This document shows positions 1,696 through 23,477 of a DNA stretch of 64,000 nucleotides, piece after piece. The notes under the pieces were generated by a model. It was not told the DNA's origin, did no database searches, and worked only from the letters and a program-made list of their open reading frames with translations. How positions within the stretch are numbered: the stretch's first letter is position 1; every line of letters starts with the position of its first letter. The position numbers and the translations under genes are program-made. Where the stretch lies: assembly GCF_003018255.1 (NCBI RefSeq), contig NZ_CP027440.1; one strand, 5' to 3'. The DNA is from Escherichia coli (GTDB taxonomy: Bacteria > Pseudomonadota > Gammaproteobacteria > Enterobacterales > Enterobacteriaceae).

Positions 1696-3348
1696 ATGAA
1701 ATTATTGCAGCGGGGCGTGGCGTTAGCACTGTTAACCACATTTACACTGGCGAGTGAAGCTGCTCTGGCGTATGAGCAGGATAAAACCTACAAAATTACA
1801 GTTCTGCATACCAATGATCATCATGGGCATTTTTGGCGCAATGAATATGGCGAATATGGTCTGGCGGCGCAAAAAACGCTGGTGGATGGTATCCGCAAAG
1901 AGGTTGCGGCTGAAGGCGGTAGCGTGCTGCTACTTTCCGGTGGCGACATTAACACTGGCGTGCCCGAGTCTGACTTACAGGATGCCGAACCTGATTTTCG
2001 CGGCATGAATCTGGTGGGCTACGATGCGATGGCAATCGGTAATCATGAATTTGATAACCCGCTCACCGTATTACGCCAGCAGGAAAAGTGGGCAAAGTTC
2101 CCGTTACTTTCTGCCAATATCTACCAGAAAAGTACCGGCGAGCGCCTGTTTAAACCATGGGCGCTGTTTAAGCGTCAGGATCTGAAAATTGCCGTTATTG
2201 GCCTGACGACGGATGACACAGCGAAGTTAGGCAACCCAGAAAACTTCACCGATATTGAGTTCCGTAAGCCCGCCGATGAAGCGAAGCTGGTGATTCAGGA
2301 GCTGCAACAGACAGAAAAGCCAGACATTATTATCGCGGCGACCCATATGGGGCATTACGACAATGGTGAGCACGGCTCTAATGCACCGGGCGATGTGGAG
2401 ATGGCACGCGCGCTGCCTGCCGGATCGCTGGCGATGATCGTCGGTGGTCACTCGCAAGATCCGGTCTGCATGGCGGCAGAAAACAAAAAACAGGTCGATT
2501 ACGTGCCGGGTACGCCATGTAAACCGGATCAACAAAACGGCATCTGGATTGTGCAGGCGCATGAGTGGGGCAAATACGTGGGGCGGGCCGACTTTGAGTT
2601 TCGTAATGGCGAAATGAAAATGGTTAACTACCAGCTGATTCCGGTGAACCTGAAGAAGAAAGTGACCTGGGAAGACGGGAAAAGCGAGCGTGTGCTTTAT
2701 ACCCCTGAAATCGCTGAAAACCAGCAAATGATCTCGCTGTTATCGCCGTTCCAGAACAAAGGCAAAGCGCAGCTGGAAGTGAAAATAGGCGAAACCAATG
2801 GTCGTCTGGAAGGCGATCGTGACAAAGTACGTTTTGTACAGACCAATATGGGGCGGTTGATTCTGGCAGCACAAATGGATCGCACTGGTGCCGACTTTGC
2901 GGTGATGAGCGGAGGCGGAATTCGTGATTCTATCGAAGCAGGTGATATCAGCTATAAAAACGTACTGAAAGTGCAGCCATTCGGCAATGTGGTGGTGTAT
3001 GCCGACATGACCGGTAAAGAGGTGATTGATTACCTGACCGCCGTCGCACAAATGAAGCCAGATTCAGGTGCCTACCCGCAATTTGCCAACGTTAGCTTTG
3101 TGGCGAAAGACGGCAAACTCAACGACCTGAAAATCAAAGGCGAACCGGTCGATCCGGCGAAAACTTACCGCATGGCGACATTAAACTTCAATGCCACCGG
3201 CGGGGATGGCTATCCGCGCCTTGATAACAAACCGGGCTATGTGAATACCGGCTTTATTGATGCCGAAGTGCTGAAAGCGTATATCCAGAAAAGCTCGCCG
3301 CTGGATGTGAGTGTTTATGAACCGAAAGGTGAGGTGAGCTGGCAGTAA
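1696..3348 (+). CDS. ushA: UDP-sugar hydrolase / 5'-nucleotidase (periplasmic)
   Basis: 550 aa, signal peptide, metallophosphoesterase motifs (DHHG, GNHEFD). Confidence 0.95.
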   Translation: MKLLQRGVALALLTTFTLASEAALAYEQDKTYKITVLHTNDHHGHFWRNEYGEYGLAAQKTLVDGIRKEVAAEGGSVLLLSGGDINTGVPESDLQDAEPDFRGMNLVGYDAMAIGNHEFDNPLTVLRQQEKWAKFPLLSANIYQKSTGERLFKPWALFKRQDLKIAVIGLTTDDTAKLGNPENFTDIEFRKPADEAKLVIQELQQTEKPDIIIAATHMGHYDNGEHGSNAPGDVEMARALPAGSLAMIVGGHSQDPVCMAAENKKQVDYVPGTPCKPDQQNGIWIVQAHEWGKYVGRADFEFRNGEMKMVNYQLIPVNLKKKVTWEDGKSERVLYTPEIAENQQMISLLSPFQNKGKAQLEVKIGETNGRLEGDRDKVRFVQTNMGRLILAAQMDRTGADFAVMSGGGIRDSIEAGDISYKNVLKVQPFGNVVVYADMTGKEVIDYLTAVAQMKPDSGAYPQFANVSFVAKDGKLNDLKIKGEPVDPAKTYRMATLNFNATGGDGYPRLDNKPGYVNTGFIDAEVLKAYIQKSSPLDVSVYEPKGEVSWQ

Positions 3349-3355
3349 TCCGAAA

Positions 3356-3379
3356 GTGCCGGATGTTCGCATCCGGCAC
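3356..3379. terminator. GC-rich hairpin between convergent ushA and ybaK, likely bidirectional terminator
   Basis: inverted repeat gtgccggatg-ttcg-catccggcac read directly. Confidence 0.45.
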
Positions 3380-3384
3380 AATGC

Positions 3385-3879
<495 letters not shown>

Positions 3880-4067: not shown

Positions 4068-4862
4068 TTAGCGCAACATCTGCGGCAAATTCCCTTCTCC
4101 ATACAGGTGTAGTGCACCGACCGCGACCACATATCGCCCCGGCGGCATGGCGCGTAATTTGTCCCGCCAGGCGAGATTTCGCTGATGCATCAGCACATCG
4201 TACAGCGACTGACTGAACGTATTAGGCAGCGTTATTTCATTATTTTGTGGCGGTGTATTCAGCCACCAGCTCATCATTTGTTGCAGCAACCGTGCGTTGG
4301 TGTGCCAGTGGGTCAGCGTATCGTCCAGCAGCGCCAGTCCGTTGTCAGGGAGCTGGAGCAACATGGCAATCTGGTTTTCTGCCCCTTCCAGTTCAATCAC
4401 GGGTTTATGTTGTTGCTTCGCCGCCTGCAATAGCTGGTAATCGATACCGTATTCTGCCCGCAGCCCCAGTTTTTGTGCCTGCGTCGCCTGAAGAACCATC
4501 GCGATTTGCCACAGCGGTTGAGTAGAAAAGAGCGACGGAGAAATGCCCATCTCCTGGCTAATATGCTGCAGATTTTGGAGTTGCTCCTCGCTAATGCGCT
4601 CTTCCAGCGTCTCGCAGGCAGGCAAATTAGCAAAAGGCGTATCGCTGGTGGAAACATCCGCCTCGACGATCAGCGCATCGGCGTTTTTGAGCTTTTTGAG
4701 CAAACGGGTGGGCAGGGGAGCCATATCGTGGCTACCCATATGAATACTGCCAATCAGATGAAAATGGCGATTGCCGGGAAGAGAGATATCGATAGCAGGC
4801 CAGGTGTAATGATTACCGCGCAGCGCGGCCCAAAGCGTTTTTACCCGGTACAACAGATCCAT
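4068..4862 (-). CDS. ybaP: TraB/GumN-family protein
   Basis: 264 aa ORF, conserved position. Confidence 0.8.
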   Translation of the reverse strand: MDLLYRVKTLWAALRGNHYTWPAIDISLPGNRHFHLIGSIHMGSHDMAPLPTRLLKKLKNADALIVEADVSTSDTPFANLPACETLEERISEEQLQNLQHISQEMGISPSLFSTQPLWQIAMVLQATQAQKLGLRAEYGIDYQLLQAAKQQHKPVIELEGAENQIAMLLQLPDNGLALLDDTLTHWHTNARLLQQMMSWWLNTPPQNNEITLPNTFSQSLYDVLMHQRNLAWRDKLRAMPPGRYVVAVGALHLYGEGNLPQMLR

Positions 4863-4994
4863 ACGACCTCCCTTTGTGAAATATCATGCTAGCGCGCGGG
4901 GAGGGATGGCGCAAATGGAGTTGATTGTTGCACTTGCGCACAGTGCTTGTGTGCATTACAATGATTAAATAATGGACAAGGAGATGAGAGAGGA

Positions 4995-5297
4995 ATGGCT
5001 CAAAAGAAAAATATAAGGAGTTTTCGTGATGCCTGGTTGGCTGATTTTTTTGTCCATTCAACGCCACATCGAAAGATCCCTGCTGAAATCCATACCACGT
5101 TATCACGAAAGTTGGACATCATTAATGCTGCCACTTCTCATCGGGATTTACGCTCCCCTCCGGGGAACCGATACGAAGAGTTATCCGGGAAATTACAGGA
5201 ATACTCCTCCATTAGAGTGAATAAACAGTACCGACTGATTTTTAAATGGGTTAATGGCAAGGCCGAAGAATTGTTTTTAGACCCACACAACTACTAA
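4995..5297 (+). CDS. HigB-like (RelE/ParE superfamily, plasmid-maintenance killer type) toxin
   Basis: 100 aa, C-terminal ...IFKWVNGKAEELFLDPHNY typical of HigB killer proteins, directly upstream of HigA-like gene, SD gagagg before ATG. Confidence 0.65.
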   Translation: MAQKKNIRSFRDAWLADFFVHSTPHRKIPAEIHTTLSRKLDIINAATSHRDLRSPPGNRYEELSGKLQEYSSIRVNKQYRLIFKWVNGKAEELFLDPHNY

Positions 5298-5332
5298 AAC
5301 ATAGCTGTCGTATTGACGAGAAAGGTAAAACT

Positions 5333-5674
5333 ATGAAACAGGCAACAAGAAAACCGACGACACCCGGAGATATTCTTCTCTATGAATATCTGGAACCGCT
5401 CGATTTGAAAATCAATGAGTTAGCAGAGTTGCTGCATGTTCATCGTAATAGCGTCAGTGCACTGATCAATAACAATCGTAAACTCACCACTGAGATGGCA
5501 TTCCGTCTGGCGAAAGTTTTTGATACCACAGTCGATTTTTGGCTAAACCTCCAGGCGGCAGTTGATCTTTGGGAAGTTGAAAACAACATGCGTACCCAGG
5601 AAGAATTGGGACGGATTGAAACAGTGGCTGAATATTTGGCACGCCGTGAAGAGCGTGCAAAAAAGGTCGCGTAG
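5333..5674 (+). CDS. ybaQ: HigA-like antitoxin, XRE-family HTH regulator
   Basis: 113 aa, HTH block ...ELAELLHVHRNSVSALINNNRKLTTEMAFRLAKVF..FWLNLQ. Confidence 0.8.
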   Translation: MKQATRKPTTPGDILLYEYLEPLDLKINELAELLHVHRNSVSALINNNRKLTTEMAFRLAKVFDTTVDFWLNLQAAVDLWEVENNMRTQEELGRIETVAEYLARREERAKKVA

Positions 5675-5731
5675 AATAATTTCCCTATAACGGATGCGCC
5701 ACCCTAAAGCAGTGCATCCGCAATGATGTAC

Positions 5732-8236
5732 TTATTCCTTCGGTTTAAACCGCAGCAACCGGTTGGCGTTACTCACTACGGTAATCGACGAGAGCGCCAT
5801 TGCCGCTCCGGCGACCACCGGGTTAAGCAGCGTACCGGTGAACGGCCACAAAATACCGGCGGCGACCGGAATACCAATGCTGTTGTAGATAAACGCACCG
5901 AGCAGGTTCTGCTTCATGTTGCGCAGCGTTGCGCGGGAAATTGCGAGCGCATCCGCAACACCCATCAGGCTATGGCGCATCAGGGTAATCGCCGCGGTTT
6001 CAATGGCAACATCACTGCCGCCACCCATCGCAATACCGACATCCGCCTGAGCCAGCGCTGGCGCATCGTTAATGCCGTCGCCCACCATTGCTACCTGACG
6101 TCCTTCACTTTGCAGACGTTTGATCGCTTCGGCTTTACCGTCTGGCAGCACGCCGGCTATCACCTCATCAATCCCTGCTTCTTTAGCGATCGCATTGGCG
6201 GTGGTCGGGTTATCCCCGGTTAGCATCACCAGGCGATATCCCGCTTTATGCAGGCGTTGCAGCGCCGCCACGCTATCACTACGCAACGGATCGCGTACAG
6301 CCAGCAGGGCTACCGCTTTCCCGTCAACCGCCAGCAGCACAGGCGTTGCCCCTTGCGATGCCTGAGCTGAAATATCTGCTTCAATTGCTTTGGTATCGAC
6401 CTGTTGGTCATTTAACAGCGCCTGATTACCCAGCAATACCGCATGACCTTCAGCTTCACCGCTCACACCCAGCCCGCGCAATGTGCGGAAACCGTTGACC
6501 TGCGGCAGCTGCATATCACCTGCTTTATCGAGGATCGCCCGTGCCAGCGGGTGGCTGGAACCTTGCTCCAGCGCCGCCGCCAGACGCAGCGCCTGCGCTT
6601 CATCAACATCAGCAAATGTTTTTACTGCGACAACCTGCGGCTTCCCTTCGGTCAGCGTCCCGGTTTTATCGAACACCACGGTGTCGAGCGTACTGGCGCG
6701 TTGCAGCGCGTCGGCGTCCCGCACCAGCACGCCAAACTCAGCCGCCCGCCCGACGCCCGAAATAATCGACATCGGCGTCGCCAGTCCCAGCGCACACGGA
6801 CAGGCGATAATCAGCACCGTGGTGGCAATCACCAGGGTATAAACAATTTGCGGTGCCGGGCCAAAGAAATACCAGATTGCCGCACTGACCAGCGCAATGA
6901 CTACCACCACCGGCACAAACACAGCGGAGATTTTATCCGCCAGTTGACCGATTTCTGGCTTGCTGCTCTGGGCCTGTCGCACCATGCGAATGATCCGTGA
7001 CAGCGTAGTATGGCTGCCGACCGCACTGGCGCGAAACAGCACACTGCCGTCCTGTACCACTGTCCCGGCATGGACGCTATCGCCTTCGCCTTTTTGCTGC
7101 GGGATTGGTTCGCCCGTCAGCATCGCTTCATCCAGCCACGCTTCGCCCTGGGTAATTTCACCATCTACCGGCACCCGATCACCCGTCGTCAGGCGCAGCA
7201 ACATACCTGGCTGAACATCTGCCAGCGGCACGTTTTTTTCACCTTCGTTGGTGACCAGGCGCGCCGTCGGTGGGGTTAAATCGAGTAATTTCTCCAGCGC
7301 CTTAGAAGAACGCTGACGTGCGCGCGCTTCCAGCATATGACCGAGATTAATCAGACCGATAATCATCGCACTGGCTTCATAGTAAAGATGTCGCGCTTCC
7401 ATCGGGAACCACTGCGGCCACAGGTTGACGCTCATTGAATAGAGCCACGCCACGCCCGTACCCAGCGCCACCAGCGTATCCATCGTCGCTGCACCGTTCA
7501 GCAGGCTTTTCCATGCGCTGCGGTAAAAATGGCCGCCGGCGAAAACCATTACCGCCAGGGTTATCAGGCCGATAACCAACCACAGGCTGCGGTTGTCGGC
7601 GGTGACCATCATGTTATCGCCGATCATCCCCCAGACCATCACCGGGATACCCACCGCCAGTGCGACAATCGCCTGCCAGCGGAAGCGCTTCATCGTAGCG
7701 ACGGCGGTTTCTTGCTGGCGCTCGCGGCGTTTAGCGTCATCTTCAATCGCTTCCGCGCCGTAGCCCGCTTTTTCCACCGCCTGCACTAAATCTTGTGGGG
7801 AGGCACTGCCCATCACCAGCGCAGTACGCTCCGCCAGGTTTACCCGTGCCTGAGTGACGCCCGGTACGCTTTGCAACGCATTTTGTACGCGGGTGACACA
7901 GCTGGCGCAGCTCATGCCGCTCAGCAGCAACTGCTGGCTGTCATCGTCATCGGCGGTCGCTGCCGGAAGCGCCTCAGAAACCGCTGTCAGTGCTTCCGAC
8001 GGGATTGATGACTCCGCCAGCGGTTTAGCCTTTGGGTGGCTTACAGATGCGTCATAACCCGCTTGTTTGATGGTTTCGATCAGCTGTTCTGCACTGGCAG
8101 TCCCGGTAACGTGCGCTTCAGTGACAGACACATCCGCCTGCTCAACATCCGGGCGCTGTTCGAGACTTTCTTTCACGCGTTTAACGCAGTGACCGCAGGA
8201 CAGGCCGTCCAGGGTCAGGTCGATAGTTTGTGACAT
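5732..8236 (-). CDS. copA: Cu(I)-exporting P-type ATPase
   Basis: 834 aa, two N-terminal GxxCxxC metal-binding domains, CPC motif, DKTGT phosphorylation motif. Confidence 0.97.
8030..8036 (-). other. slippery heptamer C_CCA_AAG at copA codons 67-69, site of programmed -1 frameshift giving the CopA(Z) chaperone
   Basis: heptamer located by frame arithmetic from the copA start; function from literature. Confidence 0.55.
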
Positions 8237-10726: not shown

Positions 10727-10850
10727 CATCTCTCTGTGCGCAGTACCTCCTGTATTATTGTGGTGGCGGTCGATATTCGCACTGGCAAAAAAACGTGCTT
10801 GAATATCTGTTGAAACCCTTTAACAAAGCACAGGAGGCGTTGCGCGAACG

Positions 10851-11258
10851 ATGAACATTAGCGATGTAGCAAAAATTACCGGCCTGACCAGCAAAGCCAT
10901 TCGCTTCTATGAAGAGAAGGGGCTGGTGACGCCGCCGATGCGCAGCGAAAACGGTTATCGCACCTACACGCAGCAGCATCTCAACGAACTGACCTTACTG
11001 CGCCAGGCACGCCAGGTGGGCTTTAACCTGGAGGAGAGCGGCGAACTGGTGAATCTGTTTAACGATCCGCAGCGTCACAGCGCCGACGTCAAACGTCGTA
11101 CGCTGGAGAAAGTGGCGGAGATCGAACAGCATATCGAAGAACTGCAATCCATGCGTAACCAGCTGCTGGCGCTGGCGAATGCCTGCCCCGGTGATGACAG
11201 CGCCGACTGCCCGATTATCGAAAATCTCTCCGGCTGCTGTCATCATCGGGCGGGGTGA
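10851..11258 (+). CDS. cueR: MerR-family Cu-responsive regulator
   Basis: 135 aa, N-terminal MerR HTH, C-terminal Cys pair (CPGDDSADC). Confidence 0.95.
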
Positions 11259-11989
11259 TTAAGGCTTGCGAAAATAGTCGTCCATTATTTTCGTCAGCTC
11301 CGGACGTTCCCCGTCATCATTGATGGCAAAATCCAGAAAAAAAGCATCTGCTTGCGGCGTTCGGTTTTGCGCCATCAACCGGAAGGTGAGGGGGCCTGAC
11401 CAGGTTTCGGATGGGCTGATGTGCTTATCAGGGCCGAAACTCTCCCATGCGTTGGGCGGTAATGTTTTGCACGCGGTGAGTTTTGGTATGTGGTATTGCA
11501 GCTCTGTTTTGTGCAGACATTCCCCGCCAGGAAATACCAGGGTTTGTTGCTCATCATTAAAATGGGTTGCCGTGCTGAGCACCAGTGTTTTGAGCGGTCG
11601 CCCTTCCAGCGCGGCGGCAGTAGCCTTATGGTGTCCGTCGAGCAGAACGCAGAGATAGGAATCAGGGAGATACCAGGCCAGAGCGCGGGCGATTCCAGTT
11701 TTCGAGAGCAGACAAAAACCGGGCGGCTCCCTGTTCACCCTCCGCAAAACCGCTGTAGACAAATTCCGCACAGGTAGGGCAACCAGCCTCGGACCAGAAA
11801 CGTATTAACGGGACATCCTTGCCAGCAGAGCGAATGGATAAGACCGTGCGAGTGCGGATCGTAAATCACACATTGACGCAGAAATCCTTTCCCGGACTTC
11901 ACCGAAAAAATGACGCCCGCAGCGGTATTTTTCAGCAGACGTACTTCAGGTTTTCGAAAGGGGAAAAAGCATGGCCACTCCTTAGCCAA
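11259..11989 (-). pseudogene. degenerate, frame-split ORF pair with weak calcineurin-like phosphoesterase resemblance
   Basis: 84 aa and 170 aa ORFs overlap in different frames; motifs DPHSHG, LLDGHH, VFPGGE resemble PrpA/PrpB-type phosphatases but are degraded. Confidence 0.2.
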
Positions 11990-12060
11990 AATTTCAGTTC
12001 CCTGAACTGTGCCAGAAAATTACGCTGGTGACTATTGCTCTGGAAATGGAAACAGTGTCC

Positions 12061-12267
12061 TTACCCATTAATCCCCGTTTGTACCGAAAGAATATGTTGC
12101 AAACTTTCTACCATAATGCGCCCCGACTGAAATAAGCCTTCCTGGATTTCATTGTTAACATTCACAGCGTGAACCAGGGAGGCTAATAACACCACTTGCA
12201 AGAAGGCAAAAATAAACGCACCGATAATCATAATATGCGTCAGGGGGATTTTCCTTTGCTCCTTCAT
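12061..12267 (-). CDS. small single-TM membrane protein (hypothetical)
   Basis: 68 aa, hydrophobic helix IMIIGAFIFAFLQVVLLASLV, start overlaps stop of upstream lipoprotein gene. Confidence 0.4.
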   Translation of the reverse strand: MKEQRKIPLTHIMIIGAFIFAFLQVVLLASLVHAVNVNNEIQEGLFQSGRIMVESLQHILSVQTGING

Positions 12268-12686
12268 TTTAAATAACCCACAAACTGGCCTTCTTTCATT
12301 AAGGCGACTTTTCCTGTGTGATGATAAACAATGACATTATACAGACCCGACTGATAAACCGTGGCATCGGCATTATCTTCATCTATGGCACATAATGAAT
12401 CATTGAGATAAGCAAAATTCTTACTACTCATTCTAAAGGTCATGCCAAATCCTTTATAAATGGCTTTTTTTGCCGCCTGGGCATGTTGTGCGGCTTCTGC
12501 ATTTTTAAATGCCTGCGCTTCAGAAGCACTTAAAATAGCCGTCTGGCGCTGCTGTTCTGCGAGATAACAGGTGTCATGGCTGACGCCCTGCGCCTGACAA
12601 TCTGCGATGCGGGAAGCGGGTGAGCTACAGCCAGCCAGTAATATAACCGCCAGCAGGGAAAAGGATTTAATGGAGCTATTCATCAT
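12264..12686 (-). CDS. lipoprotein (hypothetical)
   Basis: 140 aa, signal peptide with lipobox LLAGC. Confidence 0.6.
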   Translation of the reverse strand: MMNSSIKSFSLLAVILLAGCSSPASRIADCQAQGVSHDTCYLAEQQRQTAILSASEAQAFKNAEAAQHAQAAKKAIYKGFGMTFRMSSKNFAYLNDSLCAIDEDNADATVYQSGLYNVIVYHHTGKVALMKEGQFVGYLK

Positions 12687-12771
12687 TGTTAACCTTAAAT
12701 AATGTGCGAATTAATGAAGAGGTGAAACCCGGCAAGCTTCCTTGCTCTTATTTATATTGAGGATTGAAATA

Positions 12772-13788
12772 TTAGAACGAATATCCTACGCCGACACCTG
12801 CGCCGAAATCAGATTGCGTATCCGCAGAAATACCGGCTTTAAGTACCGTATGCGTTCCGGCATTAAAAGATGTTCCGACAGACACCGCAGATTCACCGTT
12901 GAAGGTTCCCGCTCCCGCTGACACCATCATCACGTCACCGGTTTTAACCTGTGGTTGTGAGGCGATAGCGATGGCAGATGCAGTTCCCGCATTGGCTTCT
13001 TTACGGTTGTCCTCAACTTCGTTTTTCAGCGAACTGTAATGGTTATTGAGCGTGTTAATTTGTTGGCTGTTATCTGCGACCCGTTTTTGCGTGTTGCTTA
13101 ACTGTTGCTGCGTTTGTGCGGAATCTTGTCTCAGACTTTCAATTTGCTCATGTGCCTGGACAGACTTCTGCGCCAGACTTTGCATTTGTTTATCGTATTG
13201 AGCCCTTTCTTTTTGCTGTTGTGCTGCCACATCGGTTGTCAGTGCATTCATTTTCTGCCCTTGTTCCGTGGTAGTGCGCTGATTAGCCTCATTTTGAGCC
13301 GCCAGTCTGGCATTAATCATCTCCTGATAATGCGCAGTATTTTGCGTATCTCCAGTCGCGGCGAGCGTTTTTTGTGTGGCTACGATCTGCGCCTGTTGCT
13401 CTGTAATTTGCGTTTGCTGGGCATCAGTTACCGCAGACTGTCGGGCGTTGATCATGCTCTGATAACGGGCAGGTGTCTGTGTATCACCTGTAGCGGCAAC
13501 GGTTTTTTGTCCTGCGTCAGGATCTGTCTGGACAGTGGGAGTCTGAGTGGTATCAGGTGTTTCAGAAGGGATGTAGTGATGTTCAGTCAAATAGGTATAC
13601 GCAGCGGGGCTGTTGTCTGTGCGTTCTAAAAAGCGGGTAATCTTCTGCTCAATCTCCGATTGCGACATGCCAGAGTTAATGGCTGAAAGCTCTGTTGCCG
13701 CCGCTTCAATGGTATCACCAGCTAAAACAACAGGGCTGGATGTTGCTGAAATTATGAGTGCCAGTAAAGCTACGTTTACAGTTTTCAT
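12772..13788 (-). CDS. short trimeric-autotransporter-like protein (YadA-type C-terminal anchor, coiled-coil stalk)
   Basis: 338 aa; signal peptide; Q/A-rich internal repeats; C-terminus NAGTASAIAIASQPQ...GAGVGVGYSF fits YadA-anchor pattern. Confidence 0.65.
   Translation of the reverse strand: MKTVNVALLALIISATSSPVVLAGDTIEAAATELSAINSGMSQSEIEQKITRFLERTDNSPAAYTYLTEHHYIPSETPDTTQTPTVQTDPDAGQKTVAATGDTQTPARYQSMINARQSAVTDAQQTQITEQQAQIVATQKTLAATGDTQNTAHYQEMINARLAAQNEANQRTTTEQGQKMNALTTDVAAQQQKERAQYDKQMQSLAQKSVQAHEQIESLRQDSAQTQQQLSNTQKRVADNSQQINTLNNHYSSLKNEVEDNRKEANAGTASAIAIASQPQVKTGDVMMVSAGAGTFNGESAVSVGTSFNAGTHTVLKAGISADTQSDFGAGVGVGYSF
13310..13510 (-). repeat. imperfect tandem repeat (~100-120 bp units) inside adhesin-like gene (approximate bounds)
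   Basis: two near-identical DNA blocks encoding ...AATGDTQ(T/N)(P/T)A(R/H)YQ(S/E)MINAR... Confidence 0.4.
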
Positions 13789-14154
13789 TCATTTTCTCTT
13801 GTTCAAAATAAGTCGCATTAATGTTTCTATAAGAAACAAATAATATTATTTTAAGAAATAAACTGCGTTGCAATTTAATCGAAATCTACGCCGCCATTTG
13901 TGTGATGTAAAGCGCATTTTTGTCTGGTGTAAGCGTAAACACCACCAATAAGAAACAAAAAATGTTTCTTATATAAATAAAATCGAAAATCATTTTGTGC
14001 TCTTTCAATGTAAAAAAGAGTAAAGACTTGTTTTGATAAGCGAAATAAATTCTGTTTCTGGACTAAACGTGAAGCGGTTCCTGATGTGTGCTAAAATGCG
14101 TTTCTTTGATAAATCTCAATTTTTAAGAGGTTTACGCCAGGCAGGAAAATTTAA

Positions 14155-14517
14155 ATGAATGAATTTGAGAAGATTTTTAATGAAATGAATCTGGACCGGG
14201 CATTGTTACCGATCCTTTTTCGTTCGAACCGGTCGACAGTGTGGAAGTATTTAAGCGGCGATAGTACGGCTCCTGCCTCTGCCATGTCGCTGATCATGCT
14301 GTTGCAGTTGATCCAGAAACGAAACCCCGATCTGTTAGCCGAATGGTTAACGCTTTCTGATTTCACCATTCCGCCAGAAGTTTACCTGGACCAACCTGAT
14401 TACTGGAAAGGGTGGGTGTATACCCAACACAAGGTCAATAAAAACGTCCTGGAATATCTAAAAAAACACTATCCGGATGAAGACCAAAAAAGTATGGGTA
14501 AAGGCCGGGAAGAGTAA
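14155..14517 (+). CDS. hypothetical protein, divergent from adhesin-like operon
   Basis: 120 aa ORF after AT-rich intergenic region; possible HTH-like segment. Confidence 0.35.
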   Translation: MNEFEKIFNEMNLDRALLPILFRSNRSTVWKYLSGDSTAPASAMSLIMLLQLIQKRNPDLLAEWLTLSDFTIPPEVYLDQPDYWKGWVYTQHKVNKNVLEYLKKHYPDEDQKSMGKGREE

Positions 14518-23094: not shown

Positions 23095-23477
23095 AAATTA
23101 ATTCTACAATATGTTTCATTGATGATGTTATTGAATTGGTGATTTCCTATCTTTCTATTGCTGATATTAATCTGAATCGGTGGAGTTTAATGATTTTAAA
23201 TATAGCCCTACAAAAATAACTCAGACTAATAAAATCATAAATCATATGCGTTGAATGGATATTATCCATATAGTGAATTTGTTGATAATGAATTCATCTG
23301 TGCTAAAAATGTTAGTTTAATAAAATATTGAAAGTGACCTGTAATAACAGTTGTTGTTGATTGAGAACAAATAAGTTTATGTGAAAAATATATAAATACA
23401 TTAGCTGGTCTTGTGTGTCATTTTATTTTTTTGTTGCTAACACAGGGATATGAACAATAACTAAAAGGGCACTTTAT

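Follow-up and report, generated by a model that had tools for sequence, protein, structure and literature searches.

The gene pair between ybaP and copA in the stretch of Escherichia coli DNA analysed here (64,000 nucleotides, hereafter the window) very probably constitutes an intact, working type II toxin-antitoxin operon, the chromosomal HigBA-type system higB-1/ybaQ. The pair is already known and is not new, having been both annotated by PGAP and described in the literature. An earlier note on this DNA, made from the sequence alone, had placed a 100-aa ORF directly upstream of an XRE-HTH gene at the ybaQ position near copA, and both ORFs lie where it put them, within the E. coli chromosomal order ushA, ybaK, ybaP, toxin, ybaQ, copA, glsA, ybaT, cueR. 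The genes and the ribosome binding site of the pair, with its flanks, are as follows.

4068-4862, minus strand: ybaP, one flank of the toxin/ybaQ pair.
4995-5297, plus strand: higB-1-type toxin gene, intact, encoding 100 aa with an ATG start and a TAA stop (WP_000057523.1).
5318-5325, plus strand: Shine-Dalgarno-like sequence GAGAAAGG, 7 nt 5' of the ybaQ start codon, read from the sequence.
5333-5674, plus strand: ybaQ, encoding a HigA-family XRE-HTH antitoxin and repressor of 113 aa.
5732-8236, minus strand: copA, the other flank of the pair.

Toxin and ybaQ are both transcribed from the plus strand and are separated by a gap of 35 nt. PGAP predicts both genes with the boundaries given above in strain 104, whose sequence is 100% identical across the stretch; the products assigned are 'type II toxin-antitoxin system RelE/ParE family toxin' and 'HigA family addiction module antitoxin', respectively. 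The G+C content of the toxin gene is 42% and that of the module 42-45%, as against 53-59% for the neighbouring genes. An out-of-frame ATG at 4984 that follows AAGGAG was considered as a start and rejected, since it opens an ORF of only 10 codons that is unconserved in other species.

Several other features of the window were noted from the annotation of the identical strain. A short, frameshifted, partial pseudogene lies at approximately 10757-10853 between ybaT and cueR. A strain-variable islet occupies approximately 11258-14516 between cueR and ybbJ (annotation transferred from strain 104) and contains a frameshifted hypothetical gene, several further hypothetical genes and a YadA-family autotransporter adhesin (about 12771-13787). 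PGAP also predicts a 27-aa 'DinQ' type I toxin at approximately 23266-23349, between mnmH and ybbP, near which K-12 has the rhsD element.

The identification of the upstream ORF as a HigB-type toxin, as proposed in the earlier note, is borne out by family, profile and predicted structure. Pfam HigB-like_toxin (PF05015) matches the entire protein with an E value of 2.7e-32 and a score of 111.6 bits (cut-off 27), covering profile positions 2-91 of 91, and the same domain is present in all 164 of the toxin homologues. Among proteins of solved structure, Pseudomonas putida GraT (6F8S_B, E 2.8e-15) is the nearest in sequence. A profile built from an alignment of 33 homologues retrieves GraT at 7.8e-20 and HigB of Proteus vulgaris (4MCX, 4MCT, 5IXL, 4PX8 and 4YPB) at about 3e-5, and reaches YoeB weakly. 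An AlphaFold2 model made on the same alignment (pLDDT 80.3, pTM 0.73) consists of three helices followed by three strands. The model is weak at the N-terminus, where residues 1-6 have pLDDT values below 50 and the first three blocks of 10 residues average 43, 68 and 71. When the model was compared with the PDB using Foldseek, the best 16 matches were all HigB or GraT, with a probability of 1.00 and TM scores of 0.59-0.85. Against P. vulgaris HigB the TM score was 0.72-0.85 with an rmsd of 1.8 Å, and the model superposes on ribosome-bound HigB (4YPB/4W4G) at TM 0.77-0.85. YoeB, RelJK and YafQ were the next structural matches. The RelE/HigB microbial-RNase fold, whose absence would count against the toxin reading, is thus present in the predicted structure.

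The PGAP name for the toxin is ambiguous between RelE and ParE and the superfamily fold is common to both, so that gyrase poisoning of the ParE type had to be considered as an alternative to mRNA cleavage. However, the Pfam match is to the HigB-like family, no match to PF05016 was obtained at E <= 0.01, and the model resembles ParE2 only at a TM score of 0.37 with a probability of about 0.5, compared with 0.72-0.85 for HigB and GraT. Furthermore, members of PF05015 are described as ribosome-dependent mRNA-degrading toxins. Membership of the ParE gyrase-poison family (PF05016) was ruled out on profile and fold, and gyrase poisoning by this protein appears improbable in the extreme. By analogy with its relatives, the toxin is most likely a ribosome-dependent mRNA endonuclease.

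In the alignment of 33 homologues E61, R74, R80, W85 and Y100 are invariant, H98 is nearly so, and the C-terminus of the clade reads LDPHxY. The catalytic residues of P. vulgaris HigB are H54, D90, Y91 and H92. In the profile alignment H92 of that protein corresponds to H98 of the window toxin, D90 to D96 and R73 to R80, while H54 is replaced by E61 and Y91 by P97. These two replacements, together with the LDPHxY terminus in place of EDYH, suggest that the chemistry and codon preference of the toxin may differ from those of P. vulgaris HigB. The candidate catalytic set of E61, R80, H98 and Y100, i.e. Glu/Arg/His/Tyr, would instead resemble that of YoeB. From its conserved residues the toxin looks catalytically competent, though not necessarily by the chemistry of Rts1 HigB.

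Several characterised systems bear comparison with the pair. GraT/GraA of P. putida (6F8S, 6F8H) is the closest relative of solved structure by sequence, GraT being 41% identical to the window toxin in the structural alignment with a common core of DLRSPPGNR-E-LSG ... SIRVN-Q-RL-F. The profile match to 6F8S_B ends short of the C-terminus; GraT terminates in ...DYH, in contrast to the LDPHxY of the window toxin clade, and is a mild, temperature-dependent toxin. GraA is likewise of the HigA type, but is only distantly similar to YbaQ (E about 1e-10). The Rts1 HigB/HigA pair of P. vulgaris (4MCT, 4PX8, 4YPB) shares the fold, the PF05015 family and a toxin-first operon, and like the window it has palindromic operators over the promoter, with HigBA-operator complexes available as PDB 9CHL/9CHN; however, Rts1 HigB is only 23-24% identical to the window toxin, ends in EDYH rather than LDPHxY, and belongs to a plasmid-borne pair. 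HigB-1/HigA-1 of Vibrio cholerae (Q9KMG5) also combines PF05015 with the toxin-first order, and its toxin cleaves only translated mRNA when expressed in E. coli. Unlike the window pair, it is set in a superintegron cassette. HigB/HigA of E. coli K-12 (YgjN/YgjM) has the same name and gene order and cleaves mRNA in a ribosome-dependent manner, but K-12 HigB belongs to PF09907 and is encoded at another chromosomal locus, and it is therefore no orthologue of the window toxin.

The downstream gene, which the earlier note had read as an XRE-HTH antitoxin, encodes YbaQ of the HigA family. YbaQ matches the equivalog model antidote_HigA (TIGR02607) with an E value of 1.1e-30 and 105.3 bits (cut-off 47.7), and its helix-turn-helix domain matches Pfam HTH_3 at 3e-11. 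The protein is identical at 113 of 113 residues to PDB 2EBY, and its relatives in the structural database include GraA (6F8S_A) and HigA (4MCX_A). K-12 and the toxin-carrying strains encode YbaQ under one and the same protein accession. In K-12, YbaQ was listed as a solitary antitoxin in RASTA-Bacteria (2007), and ChIP-exo peaks and a palindromic motif have been determined for it (Gao et al. 2018).

The inverted repeats tgcac..gtgca ahead of the toxin gene, which the earlier note had put forward as a possible autoregulatory operator, proved to be the outer arms (tgcac at 4929-4933, gtgca at 4951-4955) of a conserved composite palindrome over the likely promoter.

4929-4955, no strand: putative YbaQ operator, a composite palindrome of 27 bp, TGCACTTGCGCACAGTGCTTGTGTGCA.
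4934-4962, plus strand: inferred sigma-70 promoter, read from the sequence, with -35 TTGCGC at 4934-4939, a 17-nt spacer and -10 TACAAT at 4957-4962.

The architecture of the palindrome is TGCAC-N4-GCAC-N-GTGC-N4-GTGCA, which may be viewed as a pair of GCAC-N9-GTGC sites (4930-4946 and 4938-4954) that overlap with an offset of 8 bp. The interval 4915-4994 contains six perfect inverted repeats with arms of 5 nt or more, compared with 1.07 ± 1.07 in 500 shuffles, of which 0.2% reached six. The 5-nt arms were found by a custom scan, a repeat search with a 6-nt seed missing them. The composite palindrome is unique within the 64-kb window even when two mismatches are allowed, where none is expected by chance. 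In other species, all 46 loci whose antitoxin is YbaQ-like (identity of 55% or more) have the GCAC-N9-GTGC site no further than 160 bp upstream of the toxin gene; the inner GCAC-N-GTGC was found in 38 of these loci and the outer pair in 41, giving a cross-species consensus of aaatGCACTTGcGCACaGTGCangaGTGCatTAnnaT. A consensus promoter scan upstream of the toxin gene gave no call, the -35 element matching the consensus at only three of six positions; TTG of the -35 and TAnnaT of the -10 element are conserved in the cross-species alignment. Since operator and inferred promoter overlap, a bound repressor would be expected to block the promoter. Rousset et al. (bioRxiv 10.1101/2020.05.25.114553) reported that the higB-1 promoter contains a YbaQ binding motif and that knock-down of ybaQ by CRISPRi in strain S88 causes strong over-expression of higB-1. 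The conserved palindrome and this published de-repression together argue for autoregulation by the antitoxin at the putative operator.

Among HigB-like loci at a greater distance (antitoxin identity 36-49%), two operator groups were distinguished. The first has a single TTGACGCACAA-N5-TTGTGCATA site (GCAC-N9-GTGC) between TTGAC and the -10 box, and the second a different palindrome, TTGTAACATGTATCGATACA. At nine distant loci the operator lies about 32 bp upstream of the toxin gene. The difference in palindrome indicates that the type of operator co-varies with the type of antitoxin.

Taken together, these features are consistent with an operon in which a single promoter, overlapped by the palindromic operator, would drive first the toxin and then the antitoxin gene. 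The toxin would, most likely and by homology, enter the ribosomal A site and cleave translated mRNA, whereupon growth would stop. YbaQ, a dimeric XRE-HTH protein, would neutralise the toxin by direct binding and also repress the operon by binding to the GCAC/GTGC palindrome, its dimers presumably occupying the two overlapping GCAC-N9-GTGC sites.

The distribution of the pair was determined across 5426 complete E. coli genomes. The toxin was found in 1265 genomes, roughly one in four, always as a single chromosomal copy adjoining ybaQ, and no genome carried it without ybaQ. The antitoxin gene was far more widespread (4833 genomes), which leaves ybaQ as an orphan in approximately 3570 genomes (about 66%), including K-12, and both genes missing from about 590. 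Comparison with K-12, proposed earlier as a check, thus found the toxin absent and ybaQ retained. Alignment of the window with K-12 and strain PK8275 defined the exchange that distinguishes the two arrangements.

4924-5332, plus strand: toxin-region segment of 409 bp comprising operator, promoter, toxin gene and spacer, in place of which K-12-type genomes have an unrelated 76 bp.

The 76-bp segment was considered as a remnant of the toxin region and rejected: its local similarity score against the 409-bp segment was 15 compared with a shuffle mean of 16.2, with nothing significant. As this similarity is at chance level, the 76 bp represent a replacement, with no recognisable deletion scar. A search of the segment (1562-1637 of the K-12 extract) for the GCAC motif found none. 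The orphan ybaQ of K-12 thus lies behind unrelated sequence with no GCAC/GTGC operator, and has presumably lost its ancestral autoregulation. By sequence comparison, PK8275-type genomes stem from the K-12-type arrangement, from which ybaQ was then lost through a further deletion. Tandem REP/BIME-like repeats, composed of GCCGGATAAGGCGTT...GCATCCGGC units, also occupy about 260 bp between ybaQ and copA in K-12 (1980-2294 of the K-12 extract); they are absent from the window (5675-5731) and from PK8275.

The prevalence of orphan ybaQ with an identical protein raises the question of whether the toxin gene is a decaying, inert relic and YbaQ mainly an ordinary transcription factor unrelated to toxin neutralisation. 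The ChIP-exo peaks and palindromic motif of K-12 YbaQ elsewhere in the genome would accord with such a role, as would the disrupted toxin copies found in some strains, one of which maps to a homopolymer.

5045-5051, plus strand: T7 homopolymer in the toxin gene, at which a 1-bp deletion frameshifts the toxin in some strains.

Strain UPEC 26-1 has T6 at this position and its toxin gene is flagged as frameshifted by PGAP; T6 is probably common to four more 302-bp toxin matches among those listed. Either the T7 run is a hot spot where slippage inactivates the toxin, or T6 is an error of homopolymer assembly. A stop codon interrupts higB-1 in CFT073 (Rousset et al., bioRxiv 10.1101/2020.05.25.114553). 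The existence of such frameshifted or truncated copies indicates that the toxin is dispensable. Against decay, however, the window carries an intact toxin gene of the commonest allele, found on at least 1000 contigs; this gene differs from a 98.3%-identical allele by four synonymous changes and one non-synonymous change, and the candidate catalytic residues are conserved across genera. As indirect evidence for a harmful toxin that YbaQ neutralises, ybaQ is essential exactly in those strains with an intact toxin: it was essential in five of 18 strains, these being the B2/F strains with higB-1 upstream, and was not essential in CFT073 with its truncated higB-1 (Rousset et al., bioRxiv 10.1101/2020.05.25.114553). 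An inert relic is therefore very unlikely, and the intact pair is probably active as a toxin-antitoxin operon. The higB-1/ybaQ system of those authors (B2/F strains, S88) occupies the same locus, with the toxin upstream of ybaQ between ybaP and copA, and as here it lacks the toxin in K-12 and has lost both genes in some strains. The present analysis adds the distribution in 5426 genomes, the dissection of the operator, the fold comparison and a phage-plasmid paralogue; otherwise nothing substantive differs.

A scan of one genome per species yielded 80 related loci, 79 of which have a HigA/YbaQ gene directly 3' of the toxin, so that the toxin-first order noted earlier for the window is also widely kept; the exception has no detectable YbaQ relative and its locus ends about 120 bp past the toxin match. 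Synteny with ybaP and copA around the toxin homologues was found at none of the 80 loci, indicating that the module moves between contexts.

One such context is the phage-plasmid D6. A toxin with 80-81% identity to that of the window is encoded by D6 and by about 92 Salmonella and E. coli plasmids; among the top matches listed, the plasmids are about 75-95 kb in size, except for one Citrobacter plasmid of 425 kb. In D6 (MF356679.1, 1400-2628 of the extract) the module consists of orf70, encoding the toxin (80%), and orf71, encoding an antitoxin 78% identical to YbaQ, and its promoter carries the operator ATGCACTTGCGCACAGTGCAACGGTGCGCTATAGT, the same as the operator sequence of the window. One similar plasmid has the paralogous module at 3001-3712 of the plasmid extract. 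The D6 module sits between tail genes of the P1-like plasmid prophage, and a second HigA-family gene, orf72, follows orf70/orf71. In their upstream region the loci of E. albertii and Escherichia sp. E1V33 hardly differ from D6, and they may therefore be D6-type copies.

With about 80% identity and an identical operator, the D6-type paralogues might engage in cross-talk with chromosomal YbaQ. It is tentatively suggested that chromosomal YbaQ, the orphan copy included, might cross-repress and cross-neutralise a HigB-like module of this type. If true, ybaQ would be an anti-addiction or compatibility determinant for D6-like P1-type plasmid prophages, which would explain how the antitoxin has outlived the toxin with an unchanged protein sequence. 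Extended to the chromosomal pair itself, the mechanism would be the same, but the selected role would concern mobile elements, through cross-reaction of YbaQ with the D6-type module in anti-addiction, exclusion or abortive infection. The similarity of toxin, antitoxin and operator and the retention of orphan ybaQ in most E. coli point in this direction. On the other hand, toxin-antitoxin pairs at 78-80% identity are often insulated from each other, PADLOC gives no known defence-system match for either protein, and K-12 expressing YbaQ is still killed by over-expressed V. cholerae HigB-1, though this is a more distant toxin. Such a selected role is considered unlikely; it is in any case compatible with, and not exclusive of, the reading of the locus as a toxin-antitoxin operon of the HigBA type.

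As a discovery the pair carries little weight, being routinely annotated and its conditional essentiality published. It does provide a clean natural case of a core-genome antitoxin whose essentiality is set by an accessory toxin, and this matters when essentiality or drug-target data are passed between K-12 and pathogens of the B2/F groups, for example ST131 and APEC.
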